From IMG/VR virus record IMGVR_UViG_3300025571_000387, positions 1-29,115 of that record: a stretch of 29,115 nucleotides of DNA; one strand, given 5' to 3'. Numbering within the stretch: position 1 is the first letter of the stretch; every line of letters begins with the position of its first letter. The position numbers were made by a program, and so were the translations under genes. The DNA comes from a virus (Duplodnaviria > Caudoviricetes). Below are positions 1,421 through 29,115 of this stretch, one piece after another. Under the pieces are notes generated by a model. It did no database searches, had not been told where the DNA came from, and worked only from the letters and a program-made list of their open reading frames with translations.

Positions 1421-1457
1421 AGTGGGGGGATTTCACAAATGACTCCCACTTTTTTTT
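1421..1457 (+). terminator. Rho-independent terminator
   Basis: AGTGGGGG...CTCCCACT stem followed by a run of T's just after the 1411 stop. Confidence 0.75.
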
Positions 1458-1482
1458 AAGCCTTATGGTGAGGTGAATACCG

Positions 1483-3009: not shown

Positions 3010-3023
3010 GGGGGCGGTAGGTC

Positions 3024-3545
3024 ATGAATCTGCGAAAAGAGTTTGATGACATCATTGCTCAATATGGGTATCCCATTTTATTGGTTCGGCAGAGCAAACA
3101 AGTTCGCTGTTCCTGCTGGAATGAAAAGAATCAGGAAGCAGATCGGGAATGCCCTGTTTGCTATGGGCTTGGCCGCGTCCCTATTATTGAAAAGCATTAC
3201 GTGCGAGACATGGATACGTCCGTTCCTGAGACGCTAACAAGACTGGTGCAAAAAGGCGAATTCGGAGAAATGGCCATGCCAGGCCGCGTCTATTATTTCC
3301 GTTACAACGCCCCTGTGTCCACAGGAGATCTCATTGTGGATGTCGATTGGACACCAGGCGGTAAACCCATATACACAGGAAGAGGAATTTATGAGGTCAA
3401 CCACGTGGATCCTCAGCAATTCCAGCGAGGGGAAGTCGTTTTCTACAAGGTATATGTGAAAGATCAACCTATTGAAAAAGAGATTCGCTCGATACGAATC
3501 ACCCAAGCCAATGGGATTCGTAATTATGAAATTGTAGGAAGATAG
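3024..3545 (+). CDS. Putative head-closure/neck protein with Cys4 zinc-binding motif
   Basis: RCSCW...ECPVCYGLG (CxC-x11-CxxC), a beta-rich remainder, and position between the adaptor and sheath-like genes. Confidence 0.6.
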   Translation: MNLRKEFDDIIAQYGYPILLVRQSKQVRCSCWNEKNQEADRECPVCYGLGRVPIIEKHYVRDMDTSVPETLTRLVQKGEFGEMAMPGRVYYFRYNAPVSTGDLIVDVDWTPGGKPIYTGRGIYEVNHVDPQQFQRGEVVFYKVYVKDQPIEKEIRSIRITQANGIRNYEIVGR

Positions 3546-3555
3546 GTGAGCTGTT

Positions 3556-5058: not shown

Positions 5059-5684
5059 ATCATATGTTAAGGTCAGATCAAACATGCGACTTCGATGGAT
5101 TTACGGATATCGTTCATCGGTTGCTAAAAGCGGCATGGGGAGAAGATTGGGGGACCTTTTGCGAAGCCTTCCCCAATGGAAGAGACCCTCGTCACCTTTC
5201 CTTCCCTGTGATTACGTACACCCTCCAAGAAATGAGGCCAGGAGCGGTAGGAAAAAACAAGGAGATTAAACCAAGGTTCCGAGACAGCTATACGATTCAC
5301 TCCAATGATGAATCGGAGCCAAAGATGGTCTCTGTGTTTTCCCAGGTATTCGAATACGATGTGTGCTTTGAAATTTGGGAGGAAAACAACCAAAAGGCCA
5401 ATGAACTAGCCAAACGATTCCGCCAATTCCTTTCCACTTATACGGGGTACCTCATGAAAAACGGGGTCCAGCAATTGATTTTCGTCAAAATGAGCAACGA
5501 AAATCTTTCTCCAAAATGGAGAGAAGATATTGTGGTTCGAAAACTTGAGTACCTATTGCGACTCGAAGAACAATTTGAAGTGCCAAGCGATGTTATCAAA
5601 AAAGTTACTGGGAGTATCAGCGTTGCTGATCAGCTGCCAGATAACTCTATAGATCAAAGTCGTATTGACTTTACATTACCATAA
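5055..5684 (+). CDS. Putative tail completion/terminator protein
   Basis: 209 aa, ATGA overlap with the upstream gene. FPVITY...YDVCFEIWEENNQKANELAKRF is an alpha/beta pattern typical of tail terminators. It lies immediately before the main sheath gene. Confidence 0.55.
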   Translation: MNHMLRSDQTCDFDGFTDIVHRLLKAAWGEDWGTFCEAFPNGRDPRHLSFPVITYTLQEMRPGAVGKNKEIKPRFRDSYTIHSNDESEPKMVSVFSQVFEYDVCFEIWEENNQKANELAKRFRQFLSTYTGYLMKNGVQQLIFVKMSNENLSPKWREDIVVRKLEYLLRLEEQFEVPSDVIKKVTGSISVADQLPDNSIDQSRIDFTLP

Positions 5685-5698
5685 AAGGAGGAAATCGA

Positions 5699-7285
5699 AT
5701 GTCTAAGTATCCAAACTTACCAGGTATTGAAGTGCAAGTAGCAGATGGGGGATTGATTCTTCCTGAAGACGCTGCTAGCCAAAGCATGTTGATTATTGCC
5801 CCCTCGACAGAAGTAGGAGCTCCAACAGAGCCTGTTCTCATCCGTCAACATTCCGACTTGGTGGACTTTGGTTTCGGGGACTTCCTCAACTCTGCAGGGG
5901 TGGTAAACCCGATTGTTGCGGCTTGGAAAGCAGCGTATGACGGAGGTTGCCGCCGCATCTTTGTTATGGCTTTAGAGGGCAATGATACGAAATCGAGATT
6001 CATGTACCTCTATGACAAGCTATTTGGCATCTTAGCAGACTTCCAAGTCGACCATGTGGTTGCAGTCGGAGTATATGCAGATGAAGAAGCAAGCAACGTT
6101 ACCGCAAATGATTTTGCGAATCCAGAAGACCAAGCTGCGTTCCCGAACCTTCCAGGCGTTATGCGCTACGGCTATGTTGTAGAAACAGATGTACTAAACT
6201 ACAATATCGCCATTACTGCTACGACTGCCGATACTATTATCATCAATAAAGGCGGTACACAGCATACTATCACCTTGACTGCAAAAGTATACGATGGCAT
6301 GCCTGGAAAAACGCTAGAGGATTTAGCGAACGATATTAACGCAGAGTTCGAAGGCACCGCAGAATTGAAGAATTTCAAAGCGATCGTTCGTAGCGGTAAA
6401 ATCGCTATCATCGGAGATGCTGCTTTCACCATCACTGGCGGCACCGCATTAACCGCATTAAGACTTGCCTCTGGCTCAGCTGCGGTGAAACGAGCAGAAG
6501 ATGAGGGAACTATCTACGCAGGAAACTTCGCAAAATTATTAGGCGATTATGCAGAGACGCAAACGAAAAACCACAATTCAACGATTGCTTACATCGGTGT
6601 TGCTGCTCCAACAGGAAACACCTTAACTGAAGTAAAAGCAAAAGTTGATGCTCTTGTCCAACTCTATAACGAATACAGCCCATATGTAAGCGTCGTTGCG
6701 GGTCCTGAATTGGGTTACCGTATTCCAGGCAAGAACGATCTTTACTATACAAACGGTGTTGTCACTTACGCAGCATTAGTATCGATTTTGCGTCCTGAGT
6801 CCGCGCCAACCAATAAACCTGTTTATGGCGTAGCGGGTATGCATTATGTACTGTCGCTCCGTCAATTAAACATGTTAACAGGCAACAAATTTGTCACCTT
6901 CCGCTTAAAAAACAATCAAGTGGTTGTAACAGATGGCATTACGACTGCTCCAGACCTTGTCATCTCTGGTCAACGCAAGTCCTCTGACTTTATCCGCCTC
7001 TCCACGCTTCGCATTACCCAAGCTGCGATTGAGCTAATCCGTGAAGTATGTGAACCGTTCTTAGGAGAACCAAACCGTATGCCTCAATACAATGCGTTAA
7101 ACGCAACCATTAAAGGGGCATTAGAAGGAATGAAATCTTCTGGTGCGATTATGGACTATCGCTTTACTGTGGTTGCTCGCGGAGCTTCCTTGAACGAAGC
7201 TGTAGTCACCTTGGAAATCGTACCAACCTTCGAATTGCGTAAGATTTCGGTGGATGTTGCTTTGCGTCCTCAATTGGAGCAATAA
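5699..7285 (+). CDS. Major tail sheath protein
   Basis: Starts YPNLPGIEVQV, contains APTNK, and ends with the sheath domain RLSTLRITQAAIELIREVCEPFLGEPN...VTLEIVPTFELRKISVDV. Strong RBS (AAAGGAGG). Followed by tube genes. Confidence 0.9.
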   Translation: MSKYPNLPGIEVQVADGGLILPEDAASQSMLIIAPSTEVGAPTEPVLIRQHSDLVDFGFGDFLNSAGVVNPIVAAWKAAYDGGCRRIFVMALEGNDTKSRFMYLYDKLFGILADFQVDHVVAVGVYADEEASNVTANDFANPEDQAAFPNLPGVMRYGYVVETDVLNYNIAITATTADTIIINKGGTQHTITLTAKVYDGMPGKTLEDLANDINAEFEGTAELKNFKAIVRSGKIAIIGDAAFTITGGTALTALRLASGSAAVKRAEDEGTIYAGNFAKLLGDYAETQTKNHNSTIAYIGVAAPTGNTLTEVKAKVDALVQLYNEYSPYVSVVAGPELGYRIPGKNDLYYTNGVVTYAALVSILRPESAPTNKPVYGVAGMHYVLSLRQLNMLTGNKFVTFRLKNNQVVVTDGITTAPDLVISGQRKSSDFIRLSTLRITQAAIELIREVCEPFLGEPNRMPQYNALNATIKGALEGMKSSGAIMDYRFTVVARGASLNEAVVTLEIVPTFELRKISVDVALRPQLEQ

Positions 7286-7333
7286 GCGCACCCCCCTCTC
7301 TATAACTCAATAAGATAAAGGAGGATATCAGCT

Positions 7334-7900
7334 ATGGCTACTTCTCAATACACGAAAACGTATACTTCGTTTTCAGGCGCTGATATTATCGCAACCTTCA
7401 ATGGAGTAGTAATTGGCGAATTACAAGCGATTACCTACTCTGTTACACGGGAAAAAGCGCCGATCTATACGATGGGAGATCCAAACCCACGCAGCTTCTC
7501 TCGTGGAAAACGCGGTATCGCAGGATCCCTTGTCTTCACAGTTTTTGACCGCGACACCTTAATTGCGCTCAAAAACGCAGACAACCCAATCTATCGCCAC
7601 GGAATGAATACGACCGCTTCGCAACCTACTCCTGTTCATGGACCATGGAACAGCGAAGAAGTGATCAGCAAATGGTCTCAACCGCAAGTTCCAAAATACA
7701 GTGACGAAATTCCTCCGTTTGATATTACCATCAGCTTCTTGAACGAATATGGCCAATCTGCAAAAATGACCATTTACGGAGTAGAGATCCTGAATGAAGG
7801 AATGGGAATGTCTATCGATGACATTACCACCGAAAAAGCTTGCACGTTTGTCGCTCGTGCCATCGATGACATGGTAAGCGACAGCCATGAGAAAAACTAA
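7334..7900 (+). CDS. Major tail tube protein
   Basis: Directly after the sheath gene. YTSFSGADI...ELQAITYSVTREKAPIYTMG...RGKRGIAGSLVF...PPFDITISF is a beta-rich tube pattern. Strong RBS, followed by a terminator. Confidence 0.8.
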   Translation: MATSQYTKTYTSFSGADIIATFNGVVIGELQAITYSVTREKAPIYTMGDPNPRSFSRGKRGIAGSLVFTVFDRDTLIALKNADNPIYRHGMNTTASQPTPVHGPWNSEEVISKWSQPQVPKYSDEIPPFDITISFLNEYGQSAKMTIYGVEILNEGMGMSIDDITTEKACTFVARAIDDMVSDSHEKN

Positions 7901-7914
7901 CACGCCTCTTGGAT

Positions 7915-7950
7915 AGGGGAAGTCTCATAAAGAGGCTTCCCTTTCTTTCT
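7915..7950 (+). terminator. Rho-independent terminator
   Basis: GGGAAGTCTC-ATAAA-GAGGCTTCCC stem-loop followed by TTTCTTTCT. Confidence 0.75.
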
Positions 7951-7977
7951 AGGAGGATCAGAAAAGGGTGATGACCA

Positions 7978-8523
7978 ATGAACAATATCTATCAAGCAAC
8001 CTATTCTTCTTTCTCGGGCGCAGATATTGTGGCGACCATTACCCCGTTAAACGGGAAGCCTGTCGTATTTGCAGAGATTCAAACCATTTCCTATAGCATT
8101 TATCGACCAACGACCCCTGTTTATACATTAGGACGAATCAATCCAAAAGGAGTTGTTCGCGGCCAGCGAACCATCGCGGGATCCTTGATTTTTACCGTAT
8201 TTGACCGCCATGTGCTGCGCTCCGTGATAGATTCTTACGCAGAAGCGGCAAAAGGGAAAAACGCCATCTATAAATTCACGAATGATGAATTAAAAGATTT
8301 AAGAAGGAATGCAAAGACCGATGAAATGCCGCCGTTTGATATCAACATCACGTTTCTCAATGAATATGGCCATCAAGCCACGTTGAACATTTATGGGGTA
8401 CATATCCTCACAGAAGGACAAACCATGTCCATTGAGGATATGATCACGGAGAATACGATGCAATATATCGCAATGGATATTGACTTGATGGAGAACGTGG
8501 CAAAGGCTAAGCAAAACTATTAA
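7978..8523 (+). CDS. Tail tube-like protein (paralogue 2)
   Basis: Clear paralogue of 7334..7900: YSSFSGADIVAT, IAGSLIFTVFDR, DEMPPFDINITFLNEYG, IYGVHILTEG. Confidence 0.8.
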   Translation: MNNIYQATYSSFSGADIVATITPLNGKPVVFAEIQTISYSIYRPTTPVYTLGRINPKGVVRGQRTIAGSLIFTVFDRHVLRSVIDSYAEAAKGKNAIYKFTNDELKDLRRNAKTDEMPPFDINITFLNEYGHQATLNIYGVHILTEGQTMSIEDMITENTMQYIAMDIDLMENVAKAKQNY

Positions 8524-8541
8524 AAAGGCGGTGAGCAACCC

Positions 8542-9312
8542 ATGCCTACTTGGACGTATCAATACCCTGATCATGGAAATGCCGAGTATCGAAGATTCAA
8601 CAGCGATTATTACACAGGCGCGGATATTCGCATCTACTTTGAAGATATTTGGGTAGATGAGATTACAAGCCTGCAATTTACCATGCAGGAAAATGTAGCG
8701 CCGATCTATGGGTATGCTTCCTACACATGGGATCGAGTGGCGAGAGGAAATCGAATCATTCAGGGAACATTTAATATCAATTTTAAAGAAAGTTACTATT
8801 TACATTCTGTGTTGAATCGCTTAGAGTCAAAGTGGAAAGAGCGAAAATCCAAGGACAATGCGGTATTCAGTTATAAACAGTTCCTGAATGGGCTCACGAT
8901 TGAACACTTATTGAGCAGCGATGAACAGACTTTTGAAGAGGTCGCCATGCAGTTTGAGCAGTCCTTATGGGGATCGACCAAAAACGAGAAAATCAAATCT
9001 CAAACCAACGACAGATCTCAAAACTCCTACTTCTACCCGAATTTCTATGCCATTGGTGACGATGGGAAGAAAAACTACGCCTCTTATTCCCAACCTCATT
9101 TAAGAGAACACGGATTCAATATTGTGATTGCTTATGGCCCTTACAATATCAAAGGTGGCGGCGCTTCGGGAGGCCCTGGAACTGTTCACACCATTCGCAA
9201 TGTCCAATTAACAGGTGTATCCCAAATCATTGGATTGGACGGGAGACCTGTTGAGGAACAATACACCTTTATTGCAAAAGACTTGGATGTCAACGTCGTA
9301 CAAAAAGATTAA
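8542..9312 (+). CDS. Tail tube-like protein (paralogue 3, possible tube initiator)
   Basis: YYTGADIRI, APIYGYAS, RGNRIIQGTF and EEQYTFIAKD align with the tube motifs. It has a large central insertion. Confidence 0.7.
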   Translation: MPTWTYQYPDHGNAEYRRFNSDYYTGADIRIYFEDIWVDEITSLQFTMQENVAPIYGYASYTWDRVARGNRIIQGTFNINFKESYYLHSVLNRLESKWKERKSKDNAVFSYKQFLNGLTIEHLLSSDEQTFEEVAMQFEQSLWGSTKNEKIKSQTNDRSQNSYFYPNFYAIGDDGKKNYASYSQPHLREHGFNIVIAYGPYNIKGGGASGGPGTVHTIRNVQLTGVSQIIGLDGRPVEEQYTFIAKDLDVNVVQKD

Positions 9313-9337
9313 TATCACGATATAGGAGGAGAAGAAA

Positions 9338-9781
9338 ATGGCAAAGAAAAAGCAAGTACCAGTAGAGCAAGAGGTATTGGAAGTGGAAGCAGTGGAAGAA
9401 GTAGAAGAAGCAACAGAAGAAATTCATCCTGATTTAATCGGTCCTGATGGAAAAGAATTATTGTTTCCAAATGGCCCGACATTGGAGCAAGTAGAAGAAT
9501 GGAAATCACTTTTCGGAGGAGAAGTGTATCTCACGGAATTTGACGAAGAAGTATTCTTATGGCGACCAATCAAACGGAAAGAATACAAAGATATTATGAA
9601 GCTGCAAAATGCAGACAGCTTCTACAAAGAAGAACGGATCTGTGAACGCTGCGTCTTATGGCCTGAAAACTACAACTTCATGGCCATGACACAAGGAAAA
9701 GCAGGAATTCCGACATTGCTTGCGGAGTTAATCATGGAAAAATCGGGATTCCAAGCTCGCACAGGAGCAATGAAGCTGTAA
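9338..9781 (+). CDS. Tail assembly chaperone (short form)
   Basis: Lies between tube and tape-measure genes, acidic, and EQVEEWKSLFGGEVY...FLWRPIKRKEY is a chaperone-like pattern. Confidence 0.65.
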   Translation: MAKKKQVPVEQEVLEVEAVEEVEEATEEIHPDLIGPDGKELLFPNGPTLEQVEEWKSLFGGEVYLTEFDEEVFLWRPIKRKEYKDIMKLQNADSFYKEERICERCVLWPENYNFMAMTQGKAGIPTLLAELIMEKSGFQARTGAMKL

Positions 9782-9796
9782 GACCCACGAACATCG

Positions 9797-9825
9797 GGGA
9801 GGGGACAAACGTCCCCTCCTTTTTC
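9797..9825 (+). terminator. Rho-independent terminator
   Basis: Perfect 9-bp stem GGAGGGGAC-AAAC-GTCCCCTCC followed by TTTTT. Confidence 0.85.
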
Positions 9826-9846
9826 AATCAGAAGGGAGGATTATTC

Positions 9847-10392
9847 ATGGAAGAAAAGCACATCCTATCTAAAGAAGAAAAACAACAAATCAAAGAAGAA
9901 TTGGATCGAAAAATTCGAGAGTGGAAAGAAAAATATCACGCCATTTACATGACCGAAGTGAAAGGTATCGTCTTTATTTGGAGAGGGCTCTCCCTATCCG
10001 AGTTTCGAAAAGCAAATGAATGGTTTGATGATGATTACGAACGGGCGGAGTATGTATGCAAGCAATGTGTCCTAGAGCCGATAATCGAAGATTACAGTGA
10101 TGAAATCTATGCAGGGATTCCAGAAGTACTGACGGAAAATATTTTGCGTGAATCAGGATTTACTTCCGATACCAAAAAACTGGACCTCATGATTCAGCAA
10201 TACGAAGCACAAATGACTACTTTTGATAATCAAATCGCCTGCATTATCAAAGAAGCGTTCCCTGAATACACCATTGAGGAAATTGAATCCTGGACGATGG
10301 AAAAAATGTTATGGCATTACGCACGGGCAAAATGGATGCTAGAGAACTTGCGAGGAGTCATGATCAATAGAGAAGAAGTAACTCCTCAATAA
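9847..10392 (+). CDS. Tail assembly chaperone paralogue (long form)
   Basis: Paralogue of 9338..9781 (FIWR/FLWR, CKQCVL/CERCVL, AGIP...ESGF/AGIP...KSGF) with a C-terminal extension. It has its own RBS (GGGAGGA). Confidence 0.65.
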   Translation: MEEKHILSKEEKQQIKEELDRKIREWKEKYHAIYMTEVKGIVFIWRGLSLSEFRKANEWFDDDYERAEYVCKQCVLEPIIEDYSDEIYAGIPEVLTENILRESGFTSDTKKLDLMIQQYEAQMTTFDNQIACIIKEAFPEYTIEEIESWTMEKMLWHYARAKWMLENLRGVMINREEVTPQ

Positions 10393-16578: not shown

Positions 16579-19500
16579 ATGGCGGATTACAAAGACAAAG
16601 TCAAAGTATATGGCAAATTTGTTTCCACCCAAGGAGAAGGGGAGTATGTGGTATTTGACAGCCGCAACCCCTTCCTTCCGAAGGGAAAAGAGCAAGGGGT
16701 GCCTGAAGAAGTCAAGCGGGCAGCCCTTGCCTTAAATAAAATCAAAGCGCATTCCATTACGGCAGAGGACCTCCTTCAGCCAAAAGAAAATACGGGTGTG
16801 ATCGAGAGCGGAAAGTCTTCTATGGATATCATTAAAGAATCGCTTGGTATTTGGAGGCGGGTAGACCAAGCAAACTCCTTTAACAACTATGGCCAGGCGG
16901 CGATCCAGCCTTTCATGAATTTAAGACATGGGGATACCATCTATGTCTATGACACGGAGATTCTAGGGACAGCCCCAATGCATCGAAAAGGGGCGAAGAA
17001 CCTTCCTTTCTATGCTGTCACCGAGATCGGTTTGGTTGGAACCAAATTTGAGAAAGGAAGACTTGTTCCTGTAGAAGGGAAACAAGCATCCATCTTTATT
17101 CGCCCTACAGATGAAGCACTGCAGGAACTTCGCACCCTTGTGCAAAAAGTAAAACATGGCCATATCGCATTAACCGACGATGAACGGCGGACACTGGCAG
17201 ACCTTACGCTTTATTCGGATCCCGCCTCCTTTTCTACCAAAACCGTTAATGGTATTACGATTACCACCATTGAAAAGCAAGCAGACCGTACCAAATATCA
17301 CCCATTAAAGGGATCTATTTTAACTTCCAGAGAAAATGTGGCCTTGATGGAGCAAGGATTGAAAAACCTAGAAAAGCGCGGGACACCTATTCACCAAGCG
17401 ATTGCATTTATGGATGCGTTTATCAGCGAAAGAAACGCGAAATTTGCAGGGTACAACACCTTAAGCTTCGACCAGCCTGTTCTGTTGGATATGTTGGAGC
17501 AGGCAGAGAAGATGGTGGCGAAAGACAATCCAAACAGCCATATCAAGAAAGCCATTCGGCGCCAACGAGAATTAATGAGGCAAGGACAAATTGACGCGCT
17601 TCATCTCACACGGGCATTAGAGCGAAGACCTGCAACCAAATACGGATCGAAGATGACACTGGAGCGCATTGCCGAAGTGAGAGGCATTACATTAGAAGCG
17701 CACCATGCTTTGTCTGACGCAACGGCAACGATTGAACAAATCAACTATCTGCTTCAAGACCAAGAAATTGCCAAAGCCCTTGCCAGTGGACAAATGAAGA
17801 AAAGCAATCTCCTTGCCTCCTTCGACACCAGAGAATTGAAGGTAGGAGATTATGTATTCTCTAAGGCAGGTTTAACCACTCAACAAGCAGGGGAATTTGA
17901 CGCGGTCTTCGAAAAAGTCAAAGGCGGATTCCGATCTGCTTACAATATTCCAACCAACCCGCTTTATCGAAATACAATGTATCGCATTGAACAATTTTAT
18001 GAAGGAATTGAAATCAAGGGTAAGAAGCATTATGGTGTTCTTCTTCATAACGTTGATGATGGCTTGTGGCACTTTATCGCCAGAGAGCGGTTAGAAGACT
18101 TGCAAAATGTTCTTCATCGAACACTGACTCCAGTAGACCATGCATTGTCGATGTTGGATCAAAACAAACATCCCGTCTCTGGAGCGAGAGAATTTGTGAA
18201 TCGAGACCGTGCGTTGCGTCGATGGAGAAAAATGTTCTCTAGCACGGAACCAGGCGGCGGCTACACACTAGCCAAGCGAGTATTTGATACGCTGGATGTC
18301 ATCCGTGAAAAAGAGAAGGAATTAAAGAACTCTCCTCTTTCCGCAAAAGAAAGACAATTGGAGATTGAGAAAGCCGCGTTAGCAGTCAACCAATATAACA
18401 CGAAAGAGTTCGTTCGCGATCTTTACACCATGCGAAATCGCTTAGAAGCGGAAGAGCCATGGATTCGGGAATTTATGAACCGCTTGGAATCCGCAAAATT
18501 GACCGACGCAGGAAAGAATGTGGCGATGGAGCATTTTGGCAAGATCTTGAACGAGCGGTTTGGAGTTAACGAAACCAACGTTCGATTACCAAGAGGAATC
18601 CAAGCCTTAAAGGTGAACGTTGCCGATAAAGAGTCTTACATCACACTGACGGACCCGAATACCATCAAAGGACAGCTTTATGGCGTGCTTCGCCACGGTC
18701 ATGTTCAAACACCGCATCCTACGGTGATGAGAACGAGATTAAAACAATTGATTAATGAACTTCAAGCCTTAAATCCTGGCAAGCACAAAGAATATGAGCG
18801 CTACCTGGAAATGATGAATCAAATGGATATCAGCGAATCGCTCGACAATCTCTTAACGGAAATTGCTAACGATATTGCCGCAGCAAGAGAGCGCAACGAG
18901 CTTCGCGGTCTCTCCACGATTCGCACCGAAGATCCAACCAATGTTATTAAAGGAAAACGCGGTCGTTACAAAAAGATGAAAGAAGCCTGGAGAACGGGAG
19001 AGTTTGAAATCCTCTTCCAACAAGCATTGGATCGAGGGCTTGCGCATCGAACAGGGTTTTCTCGAAATGAATCCATCCGACTCCTTGGCGGGTCTGTAGA
19101 AGAATTATTTAAGCAACATCAGCAAGCGGTTTCGGAAGCACTGCTGAAAGCGGGAATCCCTCTAGAAGGAAAGATTGATACAAGAAGAATGCGAGATCCT
19201 GCTTCCTCGATTGACCAACTTGTCAAAGCCTATAAACGAATCGGCATGGATTCTAAATTGATTTACGATGCAAAATCGAAGTCCTTGTACCTGGCTTTGG
19301 CTTCTTCAGAGATTTCCAACCGTGTCTTAAATGGCACATTGGCAGAACTGCAAAAGAACAATGAAGTATCTGTTATTCGTCTTCCTAAAATCAATGCAGA
19401 TGGAACCATCACGCTAGGAACGCAAAACCGCGTATCCATCTTAGACGTCAAACGTGTTGGCCATCATCAGTATGAAATGGTGACAGGGTTTGAGCGCGTC

Positions 19501-22500
19501 ATTGACATGTTAATTAGCCGTGCTTCCACCGTGAAGAAAATGGTCGATGTGAATCAAAAGCGCGGACAAAAGACCACTTTCATCGATTTAGAAAAGTATC
19601 TCAATAGCGAAGTGCGTACAACCATTCAAAACCTGGCAATGAACCAACGTGTTGGCAATATGTCCGATGTGGATAAGATGTTTGAAGCTAGTTCTCGTGC
19701 AGCCAATTGGGTGCGAAGCGGATTCATCAATACAGCAGAATTTGCAGAGGACTGGTACCGAGAATACTATGCTACCTTGAGTCCTCAGCGACGCAAGTTC
19801 TTGAAGCTTCGTGACCCTGATAAAATAGCCGAGTATGCGAGAGAAGCGCGCCTTCCATTTGCAGAGGCAATGGGAATGTATGCGAAAAACGTCTTCCAAC
19901 GCCAAGTCGATGACTGGTTGGAAAAACGATTTGGCATTCGAACCGATCTGCATTCGGTGAAAGACACTCACGCAGCAAACTTAATGCGTTCCACTGTAGA
20001 TACCCGTGAACTGATTGGATTTGGTTTCTTTAACCAAATGGCGCGGGAAAATATCATGAAATCCGTCAACTACAAAGCATTGAATGAAGACATTGTCCGC
20101 ATGCGTCTCAAGTTGGCGGGTTGGGGCGATCAAGAAATTGAAATGGCGCTTCATCGAGAGGTGGTCACGGATAAAGCCAAACAAGTATTTGGCGATGAGC
20201 TCGCGTACCTCAACTTACGAAGCGCTTATATGGGAGATTGGCAATTAAAAGAGCGCGCAAGAATCGCCATAGAAACCGTGAAAAACGACAGACAGCGTTG
20301 GACAGAAAAGCAAAAAACCTACTTGCTTCGTCATCTCCAGAACGTGGAACGCCTCACCACTTATGACGGAATGATGCTCATGGCAGAAGATGTTGCTCAG
20401 GCGTTTGAAGCGAACTTTGAGAAAAAGATTAAGCTTCAGCAAAACGCAGAGCTCGATAGCCGCATCATTCAGCTAATGAAAGACTATGTAGAGCAGCGAG
20501 GCGGCCAATTTGACATCACGCAAAGCATGGTCTTTGAAGAAGGAATTGACCTGTCTAAAGAATTTAAAGATGGCAAAATCACGGTAAGCCGACTAGTTAC
20601 CGAAGGTGCGAAGAATGGACAGCCATTAGATGTGTATGACCACTGGAATAAAGATGTTAAAATCATCGGATGGAACGCGGAAGAGCGCACCTTGATTCTC
20701 AATCAACGGGTTCCTGCGATGGATTCCATGAAGGTGATTACGGATGGAGGAGGACGTCATACGGCGACCATTCTTCCAAAAGAAGTCATTGAATTGCTCG
20801 CAGGACAGGAAGGAATTCACGCCATTCTTCCAGAATTCGAGAAAAAGAAAAAGCAATTTGGAACCGAGTTAAACAAATGGTTGGCATTAGCGGCCAACGA
20901 AGCAAAGCGGCAAATCGTTTCCAATAAAATGATCACCGCAGGTTCCGTCCTTCAAGATCAATTGGTCAATGACACCTTAGAGAAAATTGCTGAGCATGTG
21001 CGTGGCCACCTCAACTTAAGCACTGAAGAAGTTCGAGTGGAAAACGGACAAATTGTCCTCTCTTCCCAATTAGGAAGACAGGGCATGAAGATTGAAGGCC
21101 AGAAAATCAAAGATATGATGAAGGCCATTCAGCGCGATGTATTTGATGCAAACCCTGATTTCCGAGGAAAAGTCGACTTGCTCGGTCAAAAAGGAATTGC
21201 TTATGGACAGGTGGGAATCGGAATCCAAAACATCCACACTTGGGAAAACAGCATCGGATTTGTGGAAGGACACCGTTTCGGATTGGTTCGTTATGGCCGA
21301 AAAGAAATCGATATGGTGACAGAACGGGCCAATCAAATTCTTGAGGGAAAATCTGCTGTAGTTAATTGGCTGCGCTCTCACGTAGAAGCGGTATCCGATG
21401 CCCAAAATCGGGACGCAGAGAAGATTCGTCGAAATTTAATCAAAGTGAATATCTCCTATCGCGATGTTGTCGATGAAGGAGATGTCATCATCCGCACTCG
21501 CGGCGCCGATTTTGAAACCGATGCTTATGGAAGACCAAAAACAAAAATTGTCAATGGCCATTACGAAGTCCCGATGCATATGATTATGGATCTTCCGCAA
21601 GTGACGCAAAAGGGACAGGTGTTAACAGCGGGAGAATACGCGAAAACCATTGTGGACTTTGGCCGTGCAGGAGATGAAGTATTCCGCGAGCAAGTAGCGA
21701 AAAAGGGAACCGTCCTTTTCGAGCTGCCAGATGACACCTTTTCTCGCCGCTATGTCCGATTCATGGATTTTGGCGATATCCAAGACCGTACGATTGCCGA
21801 AGCGGTCAACTTAAAAGAAGTAGAGAAACATCAGCGCCAAATCTGGAGATTATCGAAAGAGTATATGGATTTAGGCAAAAACGATGAGTTTACTCCAGAG
21901 GAAATCGAAGAGCGCCAGCGAGAGCTTCGGGATCGCATCGAGGCAGAAATTAGCGCCTATGACGAAAAGATTAATCATATGGTCACCTCCGCGCGAGACG
22001 GATCCATTACCAAAACCTATGGAAGCGCCATGATGGACATGTCAGGACGATTCCGCATCCAGGGGGTTAACCCATTTGCCAACTACGAACGTCAGGCGGA
22101 TGGAACCTGGAAACAAGTTGGAAAATACAAAGAAGGACATGTTTACATCGGAAGAAAACGCTTCTTGGAAATGATTGAAGGGCAAGAGCGGAAAATTGCA
22201 GCAGACATTTTTGGCATGGATGCAAAGCAGTTGAAGAAAATGTCCATCGAACAAGTGCGGGAAGCGATTGTGCAACAAATGCTTGACCCTGACAACAAGA
22301 AGGGTTTATATGGATTTGTAAATCGTTATCCAACGATTAACCAGTCCACTATACAAGCAATGAGAATTATGATTGATGATACGCTTCCTAATGATTTCCG
22401 AGGAGCGATGCTAACCGTCGGAACAGCACAACGACTCAAAGCAGACTATGACGGAGACTTCTTGTCGATTGTCTTGGCTCATTACTCTTCTGATAATGCA

Positions 22501-23919
22501 AAGGCCATTCATGGCGAGTTGCAAAGAATGGCACAGGCGGAAGCTGTTGACTCCACTAGAGAAGCTCAAAAAACATTGACTGATCTATACAAAGAAGCGG
22601 AGCGGCAGCTTCAAGGAAAAGGACTTACGGTACAGGAACTTTCCCATCAAGAGGTCTTTGAGACCGCAACGAGTATATGGGAGAACATACGATCCCGAGA
22701 AGCTCGTTTAGGAAAACAACTCATTGGTATTGTCGACAACACGCGGGATAAAGTGTGGAACCTCGCGCAAATCACCTACGAAACGCTTGCCAATGAGGGA
22801 CGATTAGAAAGACGCCAAGCGCAAGCTCGCTTCAACTATATTGAAAACTTTATGCGGGAGTTTTCACAGGATCTCATTTCCTCAAAGAAATTTGATCCTG
22901 ATCAAATTCGACAAGAGCTAGCGCAAACCTATTCGGGCGAGGAATTGGATAAAAAGGTAAGAGAAGCGCTAGACCGTCGTTGGGAACTGGTTTATCAAAT
23001 GAACGAAGCGATCTTGGATCCAGATCGCATCTTTAAGGATGAATCAGGGCGCCAGCGCACCAGTATGGAAGTCTTCTTAGAAAACAACCGCGTCATTCAA
23101 TTATTCTCAGATGAAGAAGCAAAACGCGGCTTTAGAGAAGTCCAATTCATTCACCGACTGAACGAAGCTTATGGAGGATTCCGAAATGAATCCTTGCAAA
23201 TCGGTGTGTCAGAAGGGCTTTCTCTTGAACAAGGGCGGAAATTGTTAGAAGGAAAAGGTATAGGCTTTTACGGCACCACCGCCATGAGAAACCTGGCTCG
23301 TGATGCAGAACCCGAAGTAAGAAAACGATTGGAAGCGTCGTTTGAACAGCATACAGCTTCTATTTTAGAAGCCTATGACCGAATGCATGAATCGAGTTAT
23401 TTAGCGGAAGCAACCATTACTTCGGAAGCCACTGACAGTATCCTCACCAGAGGAAAAACCATGGCAGAAGAAGCAGGGGAAAAATTTGGCCAGCTTGTTG
23501 AGCGATTCACCTCTCAACTTCCATCGGGATTAAGAAGCTTTGGAGGAATACGAGCAGGAGCGGCCCTGTTTGGCGGGTTATGGGCGATGAGCGCCATGAT
23601 GCGCAGTGGTCCAACTCCTGAAGCTTTGCAAGAACAAACCACTTCTCCAGCTCCTCCTCCACCAGCTATGAGTCAAGCTCCAACAGCGCGCATCACGAAG
23701 AACCCGCAAGGGGAATATATTAACATTCAAATCAAAGCCAAAGACGCCAACAACATGTCTCAGGATGAAATCGCGGCACTCGTGCAACAAGAGTTGGCTT
23801 CGATGACGGCTGTGAATATGAACATGAACCTTAATGTAAGCGACAATACGCAAAACATTGATCCTCAATGGATTCAAGGCGTGGTCGCCAACGCCATTTC
23901 GAAAGGATTCGCCTTCTAG
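16579..23919 (+). CDS. Putative virion-associated single-chain two-barrel RNA polymerase with N-terminal DEDDh exonuclease domain, 2446 aa
   Basis: Exonuclease motifs YDTE (D125/E127), GYN..SFD (D298), HHALSD (H375/D380). RNAP motifs TYDGMML, KVITDGGGRH, RYGRKEI, DMSGRFRI, NRYPT (R1916), ADYDGD (D1956/D1958/D1960). Confidence 0.8.
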   Translation: MADYKDKVKVYGKFVSTQGEGEYVVFDSRNPFLPKGKEQGVPEEVKRAALALNKIKAHSITAEDLLQPKENTGVIESGKSSMDIIKESLGIWRRVDQANSFNNYGQAAIQPFMNLRHGDTIYVYDTEILGTAPMHRKGAKNLPFYAVTEIGLVGTKFEKGRLVPVEGKQASIFIRPTDEALQELRTLVQKVKHGHIALTDDERRTLADLTLYSDPASFSTKTVNGITITTIEKQADRTKYHPLKGSILTSRENVALMEQGLKNLEKRGTPIHQAIAFMDAFISERNAKFAGYNTLSFDQPVLLDMLEQAEKMVAKDNPNSHIKKAIRRQRELMRQGQIDALHLTRALERRPATKYGSKMTLERIAEVRGITLEAHHALSDATATIEQINYLLQDQEIAKALASGQMKKSNLLASFDTRELKVGDYVFSKAGLTTQQAGEFDAVFEKVKGGFRSAYNIPTNPLYRNTMYRIEQFYEGIEIKGKKHYGVLLHNVDDGLWHFIARERLEDLQNVLHRTLTPVDHALSMLDQNKHPVSGAREFVNRDRALRRWRKMFSSTEPGGGYTLAKRVFDTLDVIREKEKELKNSPLSAKERQLEIEKAALAVNQYNTKEFVRDLYTMRNRLEAEEPWIREFMNRLESAKLTDAGKNVAMEHFGKILNERFGVNETNVRLPRGIQALKVNVADKESYITLTDPNTIKGQLYGVLRHGHVQTPHPTVMRTRLKQLINELQALNPGKHKEYERYLEMMNQMDISESLDNLLTEIANDIAAARERNELRGLSTIRTEDPTNVIKGKRGRYKKMKEAWRTGEFEILFQQALDRGLAHRTGFSRNESIRLLGGSVEELFKQHQQAVSEALLKAGIPLEGKIDTRRMRDPASSIDQLVKAYKRIGMDSKLIYDAKSKSLYLALASSEISNRVLNGTLAELQKNNEVSVIRLPKINADGTITLGTQNRVSILDVKRVGHHQYEMVTGFERVIDMLISRASTVKKMVDVNQKRGQKTTFIDLEKYLNSEVRTTIQNLAMNQRVGNMSDVDKMFEASSRAANWVRSGFINTAEFAEDWYREYYATLSPQRRKFLKLRDPDKIAEYAREARLPFAEAMGMYAKNVFQRQVDDWLEKRFGIRTDLHSVKDTHAANLMRSTVDTRELIGFGFFNQMARENIMKSVNYKALNEDIVRMRLKLAGWGDQEIEMALHREVVTDKAKQVFGDELAYLNLRSAYMGDWQLKERARIAIETVKNDRQRWTEKQKTYLLRHLQNVERLTTYDGMMLMAEDVAQAFEANFEKKIKLQQNAELDSRIIQLMKDYVEQRGGQFDITQSMVFEEGIDLSKEFKDGKITVSRLVTEGAKNGQPLDVYDHWNKDVKIIGWNAEERTLILNQRVPAMDSMKVITDGGGRHTATILPKEVIELLAGQEGIHAILPEFEKKKKQFGTELNKWLALAANEAKRQIVSNKMITAGSVLQDQLVNDTLEKIAEHVRGHLNLSTEEVRVENGQIVLSSQLGRQGMKIEGQKIKDMMKAIQRDVFDANPDFRGKVDLLGQKGIAYGQVGIGIQNIHTWENSIGFVEGHRFGLVRYGRKEIDMVTERANQILEGKSAVVNWLRSHVEAVSDAQNRDAEKIRRNLIKVNISYRDVVDEGDVIIRTRGADFETDAYGRPKTKIVNGHYEVPMHMIMDLPQVTQKGQVLTAGEYAKTIVDFGRAGDEVFREQVAKKGTVLFELPDDTFSRRYVRFMDFGDIQDRTIAEAVNLKEVEKHQRQIWRLSKEYMDLGKNDEFTPEEIEERQRELRDRIEAEISAYDEKINHMVTSARDGSITKTYGSAMMDMSGRFRIQGVNPFANYERQADGTWKQVGKYKEGHVYIGRKRFLEMIEGQERKIAADIFGMDAKQLKKMSIEQVREAIVQQMLDPDNKKGLYGFVNRYPTINQSTIQAMRIMIDDTLPNDFRGAMLTVGTAQRLKADYDGDFLSIVLAHYSSDNAKAIHGELQRMAQAEAVDSTREAQKTLTDLYKEAERQLQGKGLTVQELSHQEVFETATSIWENIRSREARLGKQLIGIVDNTRDKVWNLAQITYETLANEGRLERRQAQARFNYIENFMREFSQDLISSKKFDPDQIRQELAQTYSGEELDKKVREALDRRWELVYQMNEAILDPDRIFKDESGRQRTSMEVFLENNRVIQLFSDEEAKRGFREVQFIHRLNEAYGGFRNESLQIGVSEGLSLEQGRKLLEGKGIGFYGTTAMRNLARDAEPEVRKRLEASFEQHTASILEAYDRMHESSYLAEATITSEATDSILTRGKTMAEEAGEKFGQLVERFTSQLPSGLRSFGGIRAGAALFGGLWAMSAMMRSGPTPEALQEQTTSPAPPPPAMSQAPTARITKNPQGEYINIQIKAKDANNMSQDEIAALVQQELASMTAVNMNMNLNVSDNTQNIDPQWIQGVVANAISKGFAF

Positions 23920-23933
23920 AAAGGAGTGGTTGT

Positions 23934-26900
23934 ATGCAGACTTTCATGACTCATATGGTTTCTTGGCTGAAACCTTCTGCGAAAGAAGCGTGGAAGCTAT
24001 CCTTTTTCCATCCTTCTCAACAAAAAGTTGTCATGGTGTCTGTAGGAAATCGTGGAGTAGTAGTAGGGCCTCGGTTAGCTGAGGTCCTCTCTTCCATTGA
24101 AAAACGTATTCCTCATTATCCATATGAGTTGCATTGGCAAGATGTGAAAGCAGAGCCGCACAATGAGTATCAGGTGCAATGGGTAGGAGATACCGCTTCC
24201 TACATTGAAATGTCTTTCTCTACCTATCGCCATTATCATCGTTATCCTCATGAATTTGGCATTGTACAGTCCAGTGGTATTCGAGAAGTGATCAGTTTTG
24301 AAACTTCCCCTTCCGATACTTCTGGCGACACCCTTCGTTCCAAGGATTATCTCATAGTAGGAGAATTTGTCCAAGTAAAAGACGGAGATACTTTGGAAAT
24401 CAGAGTTGTACAAGCAGGGATCAAAGCTAGCCAGGATATCCGCATTACATCTGGGAACATTATTCCGATTCGATTGGTAGGCATTCAAATACCAGAAGCA
24501 AAAGAGAGCGGCGAAGGAATAGGAAATCAAAAGAATTTCAACTATGCTGCGGAATTTTACATTCCTCTTGAGGAAACTTATCAAATAGGAAAAGAAGTCA
24601 AAGAGTTTATCCAAGATCGCCTTACTGCAGGGAATTCCTTGGTGATTGTGGATGTAGATGGTGACGAACAAGGACATCCTGTTGCCGATGCCTATGGACG
24701 ATTCCTTGGTGTTGTATACAAAGCTCGCATCGCTCATGCAGGAGAAGTATTTGATAAGGAAGAAATAGGGTATGCAGTCAGCCTCAACAAAACCCTCTTG
24801 ACCTCTAAGTCCAAACAACATGCTCATGTTCCTCTTGCTATTCCATATATTCCATCCACAAACGAGCAGGGATATCGACGATTTGATGTACTTAGTTGGC
24901 TTCGGGAATTGGGATTAGCGGCGCCTTCTACTCCTACGCCAACCGCTAATAATAATGTGCAGGCTAGTTCTCTTACCTTCTCCATATCTGCTAATGAAGT
25001 GGAAAGCGGAGGTTCTAGCCATACAGGAAATGTCGGAGATGTCTTCAAAGCGCCGAAAGGTGATGCTCCGAATCCTTCCAACAAAGAAATCAATGCAGAT
25101 CCTGTAGAGATCATATATGGGGATCCTCCAAGCAACCGTATTGATTTTCTAGTCCCATATGATGACCGATTGGAACAGCGAGTCAAAGACCCTCTCAGCA
25201 AATATCGGGTTCGCATTGGAGATGTGGATCTCGTCATTCCTCCTCTGTCTATCCAAGTGAATCGCACTTCCAATATGCAAAAAATCAAGACATTGCGGAG
25301 CAAATCCTCGATTATTTTCAAAGTTGGCTCCAGCATGACCACGCTTACCTTGGAACTCTATTTCCATGATTTAGATTCCATTAACGGATATCCTGTCGAA
25401 CGCCCAACCAAAGATGGATATTATTACATGGACGGATTGCGCCCGCTCATTGCGCAATTTAAAAAAGCGCCGTTTCTTCCGATTGATAACGAATTCATTA
25501 ATGAAACATTAGGCATTCACAATGTGGCGCTTGTCGATTTAAGTGTTCGCACGGTTCCAGGGTTCCCTCATTGCTTGGCGGCCACCCTGACGCTGGCCAA
25601 ATTCGAGATTCAAGCGTATATGCCTCAAGTCACTTACTTAGGCAGTGTCATAAACTACCCGCTTTTCCGTTGGTATTATCAAGAGCCAATGAACGATAAA
25701 CATTTAAACAATAAGAAACGGTCTCCATATCGGACATGGCTGTATCCAATTAAAAGTCCAATTGACAACACGTTGACCTTCCAAATTGCAGATGAGGAAT
25801 CATTGCAAGAACGAGTGCAAGCCATCAAACAGATTCGCACCAATGATCCTCCTACGGTCTTCCGAGAAAAACTAGAGGGAGCTGAAACGGAATTAGGACG
25901 TCTCATTAAAGATGGACAAAACGCGCAGATTGCGAAAAAGCAATGGCAGCGATGGAAAGATGGACAAGAAGACTATATCGTCGGTGAAGAAAATACTCGG
26001 TTCTATCCTCCAAAAGCAGTAGAGGGGATTCGGATACAATTTAATAATCAGGTGGGCGGACCTGGCGGCCCAAATATTTTTGAATATGCCCCTGTTGATA
26101 TTCTCGATGAGAAATGGGATAAAGGGTATTTCTGTATTAATCTTTATACCAGTGTCAACCTCAACGAAATCCCTGCATCCTATCGTGGAGGAGAAGGAAA
26201 ATTCCGAGGGGAAATTCCGTACATCACCGTGTTTATTCCAGTTAGCGAAGCCTATCGCTTGGATCCGATTATCGAAAGAGGGTATAAAGCTCAAGAAGCC
26301 GCAGAGGATTATATTAAAGAGTATCAAAGGTTATCCGCCATTGTGGAAGCGGCAGAAGGTCATGTTCGTTTGGTGAATTACGACATTAAAGGTCAATATG
26401 TCGTGACCAGCATCAATGTGATGTACCAAAATGAATTCAGTATGGCGCAGGTGCAATTAACCGATTCTCCTGCTTTGCAATACCTCGGCATTCAAGATCC
26501 GTACATCCAAATCGTGATAGAGGCAGACCAAGACGCGGTGGAAAGCATTCGAGAAATGCTGGAAATCACCGAACGATACTCTCGAGAATATCGCATCGGT
26601 ATTACTTCAGGATTCCTCGGTGTCAGAAACCCGTTGATTCAATTGTTTGGCGTAGAAACCGTCATTCCTGAAGTTGTCAATATTCACACGGTACCAGGAT
26701 ACCCAGGAAGATTCCAAATCGAAATGACCTTATGCGGCTTCAATAAAACACAGAAACGTACCGAGAAGCTAGAAGGCATTTCTCCCATCTACGGCGTTCC
26801 TGACATGAAGGATATTCACGCAAGCGAGTTTAACCCTGCCTCTCAAGAAGCTGTCATTGAACGAAAAATGATGAATTTAGAAGCTTATCCAGATTTAGAA

Positions 26901-29115
26901 TTGCCGACGTATGATGAGCTTAACGCCGTCATTGGAAAACTGGGGATTGGAATGCAGGAATACCGAAACTACGGAAATGGGAAATACCTTGACCCTGACT
27001 TCTATATTGCCACCGATTGGACCTTCCGTGAAGATGTCATCAAACAGCGGCATAACCAGGCCCATCACTTGGATTTAAAAGATACGACGGGAATTCAAAT
27101 GTATACGAATAATCAGATGGGAAAACTGATCGAAGCGGATGAGGATAACTGGGCAGCGATTCAGGCGTTGGATGAAAAAGTCGAACAAGTGGGAATCGAT
27201 AAGCTCTTCTCAGGAGAGAAAATCGAAGGGTCGCTCGATATTGCTCCGCTAGATTTAACAACATGGGATCCATTAGCTAATCAGCCAAAAGAACCCGTGA
27301 TGGATCCAATGGGGGCGGTGAATCGAGGCGAGGTGGAAAAATGGCTGAAAGATTCTTCTCACCTCTATACGGCTCCTTCTTTTAACGAGCTGGTTCAATG
27401 GGGAGTCATCGCGAGCGGCCAAATCGGGGACTACCAAACATGGTTGAAACAATTAAAACAGCCAAGAGAAGAGCAGGTATACTCCTTTATCTACCATATG
27501 GTGGATCGACTCTGGGTAGACGGTGGATTTGTTTTTAATGATAAAAAACTCTCCAAAAAGAGCGAAGCCTGGGAAAAAGTCACGTATGCAAAAAATGAAG
27601 ACTTCTGGGCAGCTTATTACAACCGATTAAAAGAAACCGACGCGAAACACTTAATTAATGAGAAAGAGGTGGCATTGGGGTCACTAAGCGTAGAAGACCT
27701 AAACAAAGTGGCGCCTGGAATGACGAGAGAGCGGATCGCCAATCTCTTAAAAGCCATCTTTGATGTGCAAAGCGACTGGAGACAAATGACCGCCAATAAT
27801 ATGCCCATTTACAATGCGAAAACCACAGAAGTGGGGATTGGTGGCATCTCGTTAAGAACTCATGCGGTCAATCCTATCATGGCGAAACGACTCGCGTGGG
27901 ATTGGAGATACAACCTCGAATATGCCATTCGCTACTTATATAAGCTGTACACGCAAGCAGCCACGCATCGAGACATCAACATTGCTTCTCGTCCGTGGGA
28001 TTGGATGATCTACGCCTATGCCATGGCCAACAAAGTAACAGATAAGAAGAATGCAGGGGCCGCCTCCTCTTTCTATTCCCAAGTATTAGGGACTTTCCAG
28101 TCCAAATACAATTCTTCCATGCAGCGATTCGCCAGCCCAACCACCGCCAACTCCATTGCCATCCTAGGGGAGGTCAAGAACTTAACCCCTCATCAAGAGG
28201 CGATTATCCGCGGCGAAAAAGAAGCATTATTGGAAGAACTAAAAGCCACGGATTACGGCAAAAAGGAATTAGAGAAGTTGAAAAAGAAAACGGCATTGGA
28301 GGTCGCGGACGCATATGAAAAACATATGAAGAAGCTTTTCCCTCTAGATGGAAAACAGCCTGGCATTGTCTATGGAGGAATATATGATACCTACATGACC
28401 ACCATCGTAGCAAAACATATGGGAAATCAAGACAAGTATAAAGAGCAGTTTGAAAACTACCTGCTCTACAAACAGTTCCGAGAAGACGCACAGAAGCTGG
28501 AAAATTATCTCCTCTTCAATGACGATCCGTATACCATTTACGAAGAAATGTTTACGGACTTGGAGGAATATGACCAGCGCGGCCGACTGGTGCGTGCCTA
28601 TCCGACTTTCCAAATGTTTATTATCGATGAGGGAAGATGGATGGCGAACTATCGCTTGTGGGATAATTTATATGGATTTAACGCGATTCGATCCATCGAT
28701 ATCCACAAGAGCCGAAAAAGCGCCGCAGACACCGCTGTTATTGAAATGACCAACGTTTACAGCAACCTCACTTCCTACCCAGTAACCTCTCAATTCGAAG
28801 AGCACCACTACGATTGGTGGGACAACCTTGTAATGGGAAGACCAAACGAAAAGCTCCTAGAGGCAAGAAAACAACTCCTCACTTCCATGATGCTTCAACC
28901 AGGGGCTCGGATCCATCTTCGTTTGGGATACGGTTCTTGCGTTCCAAATCTTCCAATTGTCTTTAATGGAACGATTACCGATATGGAAGTCGATGAAGTG
29001 GTTCGCATTGTTGCTCTGGGAGATGGGTACGAACTCACCAATATCGTTTCCCCAGACCCTGATGATGAAAACACCAAATGGGGTCAAATTATAGAACCAA
29101 GGGATCTTATCTGTG
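23934..29115 (+). CDS. Large baseplate hub / tail-tip protein (3'-truncated, >1727 aa) with SNase-like, repeated distal-tail-like, degenerate SLT-like and hub domains
   Basis: ATG at 23934 with RBS AAAGGAG (23920-23926). No in-frame stop before the window end, hence absent from the ORF track. Translation begins MQTFMTHMVSW and ends ...IIEPRDLIC. Hub-like motif SIDIHKSRKSAADTAVIEMTN...PGARIHLRLGYG...VFNGTITD near the end. Confidence 0.8.
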   Translation, partial: MQTFMTHMVSWLKPSAKEAWKLSFFHPSQQKVVMVSVGNRGVVVGPRLAEVLSSIEKRIPHYPYELHWQDVKAEPHNEYQVQWVGDTASYIEMSFSTYRHYHRYPHEFGIVQSSGIREVISFETSPSDTSGDTLRSKDYLIVGEFVQVKDGDTLEIRVVQAGIKASQDIRITSGNIIPIRLVGIQIPEAKESGEGIGNQKNFNYAAEFYIPLEETYQIGKEVKEFIQDRLTAGNSLVIVDVDGDEQGHPVADAYGRFLGVVYKARIAHAGEVFDKEEIGYAVSLNKTLLTSKSKQHAHVPLAIPYIPSTNEQGYRRFDVLSWLRELGLAAPSTPTPTANNNVQASSLTFSISANEVESGGSSHTGNVGDVFKAPKGDAPNPSNKEINADPVEIIYGDPPSNRIDFLVPYDDRLEQRVKDPLSKYRVRIGDVDLVIPPLSIQVNRTSNMQKIKTLRSKSSIIFKVGSSMTTLTLELYFHDLDSINGYPVERPTKDGYYYMDGLRPLIAQFKKAPFLPIDNEFINETLGIHNVALVDLSVRTVPGFPHCLAATLTLAKFEIQAYMPQVTYLGSVINYPLFRWYYQEPMNDKHLNNKKRSPYRTWLYPIKSPIDNTLTFQIADEESLQERVQAIKQIRTNDPPTVFREKLEGAETELGRLIKDGQNAQIAKKQWQRWKDGQEDYIVGEENTRFYPPKAVEGIRIQFNNQVGGPGGPNIFEYAPVDILDEKWDKGYFCINLYTSVNLNEIPASYRGGEGKFRGEIPYITVFIPVSEAYRLDPIIERGYKAQEAAEDYIKEYQRLSAIVEAAEGHVRLVNYDIKGQYVVTSINVMYQNEFSMAQVQLTDSPALQYLGIQDPYIQIVIEADQDAVESIREMLEITERYSREYRIGITSGFLGVRNPLIQLFGVETVIPEVVNIHTVPGYPGRFQIEMTLCGFNKTQKRTEKLEGISPIYGVPDMKDIHASEFNPASQEAVIERKMMNLEAYPDLELPTYDELNAVIGKLGIGMQEYRNYGNGKYLDPDFYIATDWTFREDVIKQRHNQAHHLDLKDTTGIQMYTNNQMGKLIEADEDNWAAIQALDEKVEQVGIDKLFSGEKIEGSLDIAPLDLTTWDPLANQPKEPVMDPMGAVNRGEVEKWLKDSSHLYTAPSFNELVQWGVIASGQIGDYQTWLKQLKQPREEQVYSFIYHMVDRLWVDGGFVFNDKKLSKKSEAWEKVTYAKNEDFWAAYYNRLKETDAKHLINEKEVALGSLSVEDLNKVAPGMTRERIANLLKAIFDVQSDWRQMTANNMPIYNAKTTEVGIGGISLRTHAVNPIMAKRLAWDWRYNLEYAIRYLYKLYTQAATHRDINIASRPWDWMIYAYAMANKVTDKKNAGAASSFYSQVLGTFQSKYNSSMQRFASPTTANSIAILGEVKNLTPHQEAIIRGEKEALLEELKATDYGKKELEKLKKKTALEVADAYEKHMKKLFPLDGKQPGIVYGGIYDTYMTTIVAKHMGNQDKYKEQFENYLLYKQFREDAQKLENYLLFNDDPYTIYEEMFTDLEEYDQRGRLVRAYPTFQMFIIDEGRWMANYRLWDNLYGFNAIRSIDIHKSRKSAADTAVIEMTNVYSNLTSYPVTSQFEEHHYDWWDNLVMGRPNEKLLEARKQLLTSMMLQPGARIHLRLGYGSCVPNLPIVFNGTITDMEVDEVVRIVALGDGYELTNIVSPDPDDENTKWGQIIEPRDLIC

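Follow-up and report, generated by a model that had tools for sequence, protein, structure and literature searches.

Single-chain two-barrel RNA polymerases (RNAPs) carried in the virion are the closest described relatives of the system reported here. In the Thermus phage P23-45, gp96 is a tape measure of 5,002 residues with metallopeptidase and transmembrane domains that carries its RNAP at the N-terminus and makes the pre-early RNA (PMC10770324; PDB 8h2n, 8h2m), while the virion RNAPs of crAss-like phages are β–β′ fusion cargo proteins (PMC10136315). A further point of comparison is gp146 of Bacillus phage 0305phi8-36 (EF583821), a 'hypothetical tape measure protein' assigned as such mainly by tail-length correlation and position (PMC2147016), which according to its GenBank note was found in the virion by mass spectrometry. 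The DNA analysed here is a stretch of 29,115 nucleotides from a tailed phage (IMG/VR record IMGVR_UViG_3300025571_000387; hereafter the window), in which a giant gene, P0001, encodes a predicted DEDDh (DnaQ-like) 3′–5′ exonuclease in front of a predicted single-chain two-barrel RNAP. This fusion is genuine and represents a variation on the single-chain two-barrel RNAPs of virions; it is usual in homologues but not obligatory, and the exonuclease is likely to have its own role in infection, perhaps the trimming of incoming DNA ends.

The original prediction had proposed that the DEDDh domain is intact and carries a long insertion between ExoI and ExoII; an RNase H-like fold and conserved acidic residues were expected, and a Pfam RNase_T search was named as a check. 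The domain is complete, with all motifs where they had been placed (Table 1), and the stretch of about 140 residues between ExoI and ExoII includes a family-specific insertion. Residues 101–764 were queried against 1.84 billion cluster representatives, giving 73 matches, from which the protein itself and eight short proteins were dropped before counting. In all 64 full-length representatives kept (clusters at 50% identity), D125, E127, D298, D339, H375 and D380 are identical, which bears out the expected conservation of the acidic residues, while none of the remaining 75 Asp, Glu and His positions of residues 100–620 stands above 0.88. A separate full-length search returned 29 proteins, the window's own included, and homologues are found in the cultured phages KLEB27-3 (41%), WH1 and Edson (both about 25%); the six exonuclease residues are identical in 30 of the 31 homologues in this full-length set and the three cultured phages, rows that are not independent of one another, the exception being P0023, which has no N-terminus. 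Locus scans with a four-row alignment in viral contigs and a 28-row alignment in genome contigs gave no relatives.

The fold was likewise as expected, Foldseek matching the exonuclease model to Exonuclease I, the polymerase III ε subunit and RNase T with a probability of 1.0 each. DNases tie with RNases in this structural ranking, which does not separate DNA from RNA as the type of substrate of the predicted activity. PHROG 192 matches the domain (E = 2.4e-8). Pfam RNase_T (PF00929) does match P0001 (E = 0.031), but at 15.3 bits it falls below the curated cut-off of 24 bits; three of eight family members are matched at E up to 0.1 (best 0.0074), and the domain of the relative in Moorella phage MTATph1 clears the cut-off with 25.5 bits. 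The spaced DEDDh pattern, which was defined after the sequence had been seen, occurred in none of 2,000 shuffles. Against PDB sequences, phmmer found nothing relevant to the exonuclease region, and the family profile reached Exonuclease I at E = 0.026 at best; matches in the Atlas were all below 0.9 and serve as leads only. Foldseek matches to Hsp70/DnaK were dismissed as noise (TM 0.10–0.18, rmsd about 18–29), a three-domain architecture of the Exonuclease I type was unsupported, as 192 residues alone aligned to 1fxx, and a repeat search in three small regions yielded chance-level pairs only. Compared with the known members of the DEDDh family (PF00929), such as Exonuclease I, the polymerase III ε subunit, the exonuclease domains of PolC and DinG, RNase T and ERI1/3′hExo, the P0001 domain differs in its long ExoI–ExoII insertion, its score below the Pfam cut-off and its partner: the others stand alone or are joined to a DNA polymerase or helicase, whereas this one is joined to an RNAP in a predicted virion protein.

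The polymerase is predicted to occupy the C-terminal half of P0001. Its β′-type barrel carries the R-x-P...D-x-D-x-D signature, with R1916, P1918, D1956, D1958 and D1960 identical in the same 64 representatives, and gives structural matches to β′; the β-type barrel has its two basic residues at positions 1385 and 1393, each basic in 63 of the 64. As the set was drawn with the exonuclease region as a query, polymerases without an exonuclease cannot appear in it. The profile of the RNAP got no further than a phiKZ subunit at E = 0.22. The profile of the YonO/QDE-1-like single-subunit RNAPs (PF05183, YonO/RdRP-like) matched neither P0001 nor its relatives in KLEB27-3, WH1 and Edson, and no crAss RNAP was among the structural matches listed for the polymerase model. 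A viral-library structure labelled 'Minor tail protein' (A0A8S5SD80) matches this model with a TM of 0.52. A search for stand-alone polymerases among proteins of 525–1,953 residues, with the best 7,998 candidates scored, returned only P0023, a result that is no evidence of absence. About 630 residues lie between the end of the exonuclease (about residue 403) and the start of the modelled polymerase core (about residue 1030); the exonuclease is thus N-terminal to a two-barrel RNAP, as had been proposed, but to place it at the N-terminus of the polymerase is loose wording.

Compared with gp96, P0001 has its RNAP in the C-terminal half, behind the exonuclease, and belongs to a phage with a contractile tail. 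Neither a tape-measure domain of Pfam (PF10145) nor a peptidase family matches P0001, which also lacks a strong hydrophobic segment and falls outside the gp96 type. A classical tape-measure identity is unsupported, the hydropathy maximum being 1.15 and the modelled parts globular, and the upstream gp145-type gene, directly after the chaperones, is an alternative tape-measure candidate. The crAss-like polymerases are giant single-chain two-barrel RNAPs delivered with other large ejected proteins, as is predicted for P0001, whereas their phages differ in order and tail type and the nuclease is of the PD-(D/E)XK and not the DEDDh type; lying within a large transcription-associated protein, that nuclease is a partial precedent (PMC10136315). 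No description of a two-barrel RNAP with a fused DEDDh exonuclease was found in the literature outside subscription journals and preprint supplements: the word 'nuclease' does not occur in the main text of PMC10770324, the accessible content of its ten supplementary files mentions neither 'exonuclease' nor the accessions of WH1, KLEB27-3 and gp146, and the available text of PMC5512222 contains nothing on an exonuclease–polymerase fusion. The members of this large family go under the labels structural, hypothetical or tape measure, so that a lineage of probable virion polymerases passes unrecognised.

P0001 is a positional and partial homologue of gp146, which, like P0001, lies between gp145 and the gp147 hub, has a similar length and contains a DEDDh module and the domain that follows it. 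The set in gp146 (L004:11579-19192) is complete (YLDIET 1221, GQNVADAD 1439, HLARADV 1685) and absent from the annotation, and this protein of a well-studied phage is here re-read as nuclease-bearing. Unlike P0001, gp146 has no DxDxD and no RNAP-core match, and its exonuclease sits mid-protein behind an unrelated extension of about 1,200 residues; the phage has a separate RdRP-like polymerase, the YonO-like gp99, outside the structural block. Run against 13 proteins, the exonuclease-region profile matched three collinear segments each of gp146 (E = 1.7e-10) and of CDS27 from MTATph1 (E = 3.5e-25), and the β-rich domain and DRAxRR helix behind the exonuclease accompany it in these polymerase-less relatives too; for the β-rich domain, the Atlas search gave no match and no known family was found. 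The profile of the C-terminal tail also matches the polymerase-less relatives L041, L042 and MTATph1 CDS31. In MTATph1 (L005:11721-19077) the gp146-type gene is apparently split by a transposase-bearing insertion into CDS27, CDS28-30 and CDS31, the last with the C-terminal tail.

To counter the query bias, a survey was anchored on the upstream gene and covered 74 loci. Of these, 67 are viral, taken from the 80 best among 165 matches, while seven come from genomes. Exonuclease and DxDxD occur in one chain at 39 of the 74 (38 with the exonuclease recognized by profile and L074 by motif), several of which are near-copies, and ExoI and ExoIII are present in all 30 non-redundant picks. Five loci encode complete proteins with a mid-chain exonuclease and no polymerase-type DxDxD (L039, which is 0305phi8-36, L041, L042, L044 and L095, where the sole D-x-D-x-D string falls within the exonuclease region), and in five more the exonuclease is present and the sequence ends too early to judge the polymerase. 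A polymerase-like core with no exonuclease match was seen at four loci, clearly in L064 (E = 6e-33), at E = 3e-5 in L047 and L048, and weakly in L090; seven loci have too little downstream DNA and 14 have neither module within 10 kb. A polymerase-core profile of 123 sequences found no match in the six complete exonuclease-only proteins (that of MTATph1 and those of the five loci), five of which retain all three Exo motifs, ExoIII not being located in L095. The converse case is offered by gp36 of Acinetobacter phage ME3 (L103:16298-21109), an unannotated protein of 1,603 residues at the same position, with REP...DHDQD, a core match at E = 9e-10 and no ExoI motif; with ME3 in culture, a candidate for a virion RNAP is thus at hand there.

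The idea that homologues keep the fusion thus holds as a rule, with exceptions on both sides, namely gp146, MTATph1 and the uncultured or plasmid relatives L041, L042, L044 and L095 for the exonuclease alone and ME3 gp36 and the contig L064 for the polymerase alone. As the parts occur apart in relatives, the exonuclease is likely to have its own job in infection rather than RNA proofreading. Among cultured phages, KLEB27-3, WH1 and Edson have the fusion, 0305phi8-36 has the exonuclease alone and ME3 the polymerase alone; with all three states represented, the processing of DNA ends and the start of transcription at entry of large phages are directly testable.

Other arrangements were seen among the loci. 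A protein of 3,900 residues (L017:6470-18169) combines PF10145 (E = 7.6e-26) with a DFDGD polymerase motif and a core match (E = 1e-11) and has no exonuclease match. A stand-alone open reading frame (ORF) of 356 residues with DVDGD (L015/L016:9737-10804) matches the profile (E = 1e-12) in the catalytic part only and is possibly a split polymerase subunit. At L034:16535-23811 the fused gene appears as two overlapping ORFs (2,026 and 419 residues), through either a frameshift or a sequencing error, while it is whole in the near-identical L033 and L037.

The history of the fusion was approached through trees of the neighbouring upstream gene, which are unrooted. The exonuclease-only state takes three changes in the 52-row FastTree tree and two in the 24-row IQ-TREE tree, and on the latter, whose rows were picked after the first tree with the tested group named earlier, a single clade of exonuclease-only proteins was rejected (p-AU 1.6e-6). 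The gp146 group sits nested among fused forms, and the simplest reading of this arrangement is that the polymerase was lost and the exonuclease retained; an ancestral exonuclease-only state is for the same reason not favoured. A separate PF05183 polymerase gene is present in 0305phi8-36 (gp99, E = 1.1e-20) and in a Paenibacillus element, and none was found in KLEB27-3, WH1, Edson or MTATph1, nor in four further records (L041, L042, L044, L064), of which only one is complete. That element, the 206 kb 'plasmid pla' of Paenibacillus sp. EC2-1 (L095, L100), has gp145- and gp146-type genes besides the YonO/RdRP-like polymerase gene, which makes it a probable phage-plasmid and relative of 0305phi8-36.

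An exonuclease that outlasts its polymerase needs a polymerase-independent substrate. The reading that we favour, with somewhat less than even confidence, is that the exonuclease at the front of a predicted virion-packed and injected polymerase does not depend on that polymerase and trims the 3′ ends of the phage DNA as it enters. With gp145 and gp147 homologues on either side, the P0001 gene occupies the place of gp146, and from this homology and synteny, together with the 'structural' labels of relatives, we infer that its product is in the virion and is injected. The gp145-, gp146- and gp147-type giants would exit the tail together with the leading genome end, next to which the exonuclease, in few copies, would resect in the 3′–5′ direction; few injected copies could plausibly act on one close substrate such as a genome end. 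Through the resulting single-stranded 5′ tails, terminal repeats would be able to anneal, and in the fused form the polymerase would gain a loading site for pre-early transcription. In 0305phi8-36 the direct terminal repeats measure 6,479 bp; resection across such repeats would give complementary 5′ tails and could also provide a single-stranded template, and some virion polymerases prefer single-stranded templates. Pre-early RNA would be made by the polymerase, as by gp96 in P23-45. Against this trimming of phage DNA weigh the dominance of the fused form, the equally good fit of RNases to the exonuclease fold and the ability of ME3 to cope without the domain. A wider picture, tentative and as a whole rather unlikely, is that large tailed phages of a broad lineage inject two fused enzymes as an entry machine; resection of the leading end by the exonuclease would create both the single-stranded loading site of the polymerase and tails for circularisation, and gp146 would be a descendant that has shed the polymerase but not the nuclease.

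Among the roles initially suggested, the syntenic relatives with one part only favour action on genome ends or on the host and weaken RNA proofreading. It is unlikely that the injected exonuclease serves as counter-defence or takeover cargo, carried on the same ejected protein, and attacks nucleic acids of the host or molecules of its defence (single-stranded defence DNA, short oligonucleotide signals or RNA ends): a few copies could hardly clear a circular chromosome, and near-universal invariant retention over very distant phages is less expected of counter-defence genes with their fast turnover. Somewhat less probable again is an editing role, in which the domain would proofread or trim transcripts of the fused polymerase, as an extrinsic 3′ editor comparable to nsp14-ExoN of coronavirus polymerases, or shorten them into primers. 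The prevalence of the fusion (39 of 74 anchored loci), the co-occurrence of both sites in 64 of 64 representatives from the N-terminal query and the equal match of RNA-acting DEDDh enzymes speak for it, and a stripped-down polymerase may be devoid of factor-assisted cleavage; however, the 64-of-64 count is biased by the query, about 630 residues part the two enzymes, the exonuclease is intact in lineages without a fused polymerase, and ME3 gp36 and L064 have kept a polymerase but no exonuclease. The position of the gene within the late structural block, the presence of its gp146 homologue in the virion at the tape-measure position and the independence of the exonuclease from the polymerase would also suit a late task in assembly, in which the domain would trim or hold the end of the packaged DNA while the tail joins the head and would be a passenger at infection. 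This is improbable, as the fused polymerase makes sense at entry only (the P23-45 precedent) and the chain is therefore likely to be delivered to the next cell. Finally, the sub-threshold Pfam score and an activity that is predicted could fit a catalytically idle structural or DNA-end-binding relic, yet the metal-binding and general-base residues are the sole invariant Asp, Glu and His among 81 positions and ExoI and ExoIII are kept in the 30 distant loci as well, which makes such a relic very improbable.

The order of the head–tail block, whose chaperones are followed in the window by the three giants, is the same in KLEB27-3, WH1 and 0305phi8-36.

Table 1. Features of the window, with positions counted from its first nucleotide
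Feature	Position	Strand	Remarks
Myophage head–tail block	2..10392	+	Capsid, Ig/FN3 protein, two sheath paralogues, three tube paralogues, two tail chaperones
Upstream gene, 2,050 residues	10412..16564	+	Homologue of 0305phi8-36 virion protein gp145; directly after the two tail chaperones; survey anchor
Giant gene P0001, 2,446 residues	16579..23919	+	Exonuclease, linker domains, two-barrel RNAP, conserved C-terminal tail
Predicted DEDDh (DnaQ-like) 3′–5′ exonuclease domain, residues ~116–403	16924..17787	+	Structural matches cover model residues ~16–303
ExoI motif, D125 and E127	16951..16959	+	Identical in 64/64; codons checked (D125 at 16951, E127 at 16957)
ExoI–ExoII stretch, ~140 residues, with family-specific insertion	17026..17442	+	Helices and hairpin; conserved DxxRRTLxDL, GLxNL
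ExoII motif FAGYNTLSFDQPVL, N293 and D298	17443..17484	+	D298 (at 17470) 64/64; N293 63/64
D339 (IDALHL), invariant Asp between ExoII and ExoIII	17593..17595	+	64/64
ExoIII motif H375-x4-D380, DEDDh type	17701..17718	+	64/64; H375 at 17701, D380 at 17716
β-rich domain (residues ~425–518) and DRAxRR helix (~532–554)	17851..18240	+	Structure model
β-like half of predicted RNAP, residues ~1030–1558	19666..21252	+	K1385 (20731-33), R1393 (20755-57)
β′-like half of predicted RNAP, residues ~1625–2110	21451..22908	+	R1916-x-P1918; D1956-x-D1958-x-D1960 (22444-22458)
Conserved C-terminal tail	23536..23916	+	Gly/Ala-rich, mildly hydrophobic segment; Kyte–Doolittle maximum window 1.15
Downstream baseplate-hub gene, gp147 family	23868..29114	+	Cut by window end; PHROG 20474, E 2.5e-146

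The hub gene contains an SNase-like domain near its N-terminus (residues ~160–290), which Pfam SNase matches at E = 0.0033, below the cut-off, and residues ~1470–1550 of the upstream giant resemble SNase by eye, although their catalytic positions are altered and Pfam gives no match; three adjacent virion giants may each carry a nuclease fold. In the approximately 450 bp behind the capsid gene (window 626-1081), no ORF of at least 60 residues is present on the + strand, and relatives hold one or two small genes there. In KLEB27-3 (L001:10656-17809), the gp145-type gene is found in two pieces around an ORF of 211 residues that by eye resembles a homing endonuclease, suggesting that the gene contains an intron.
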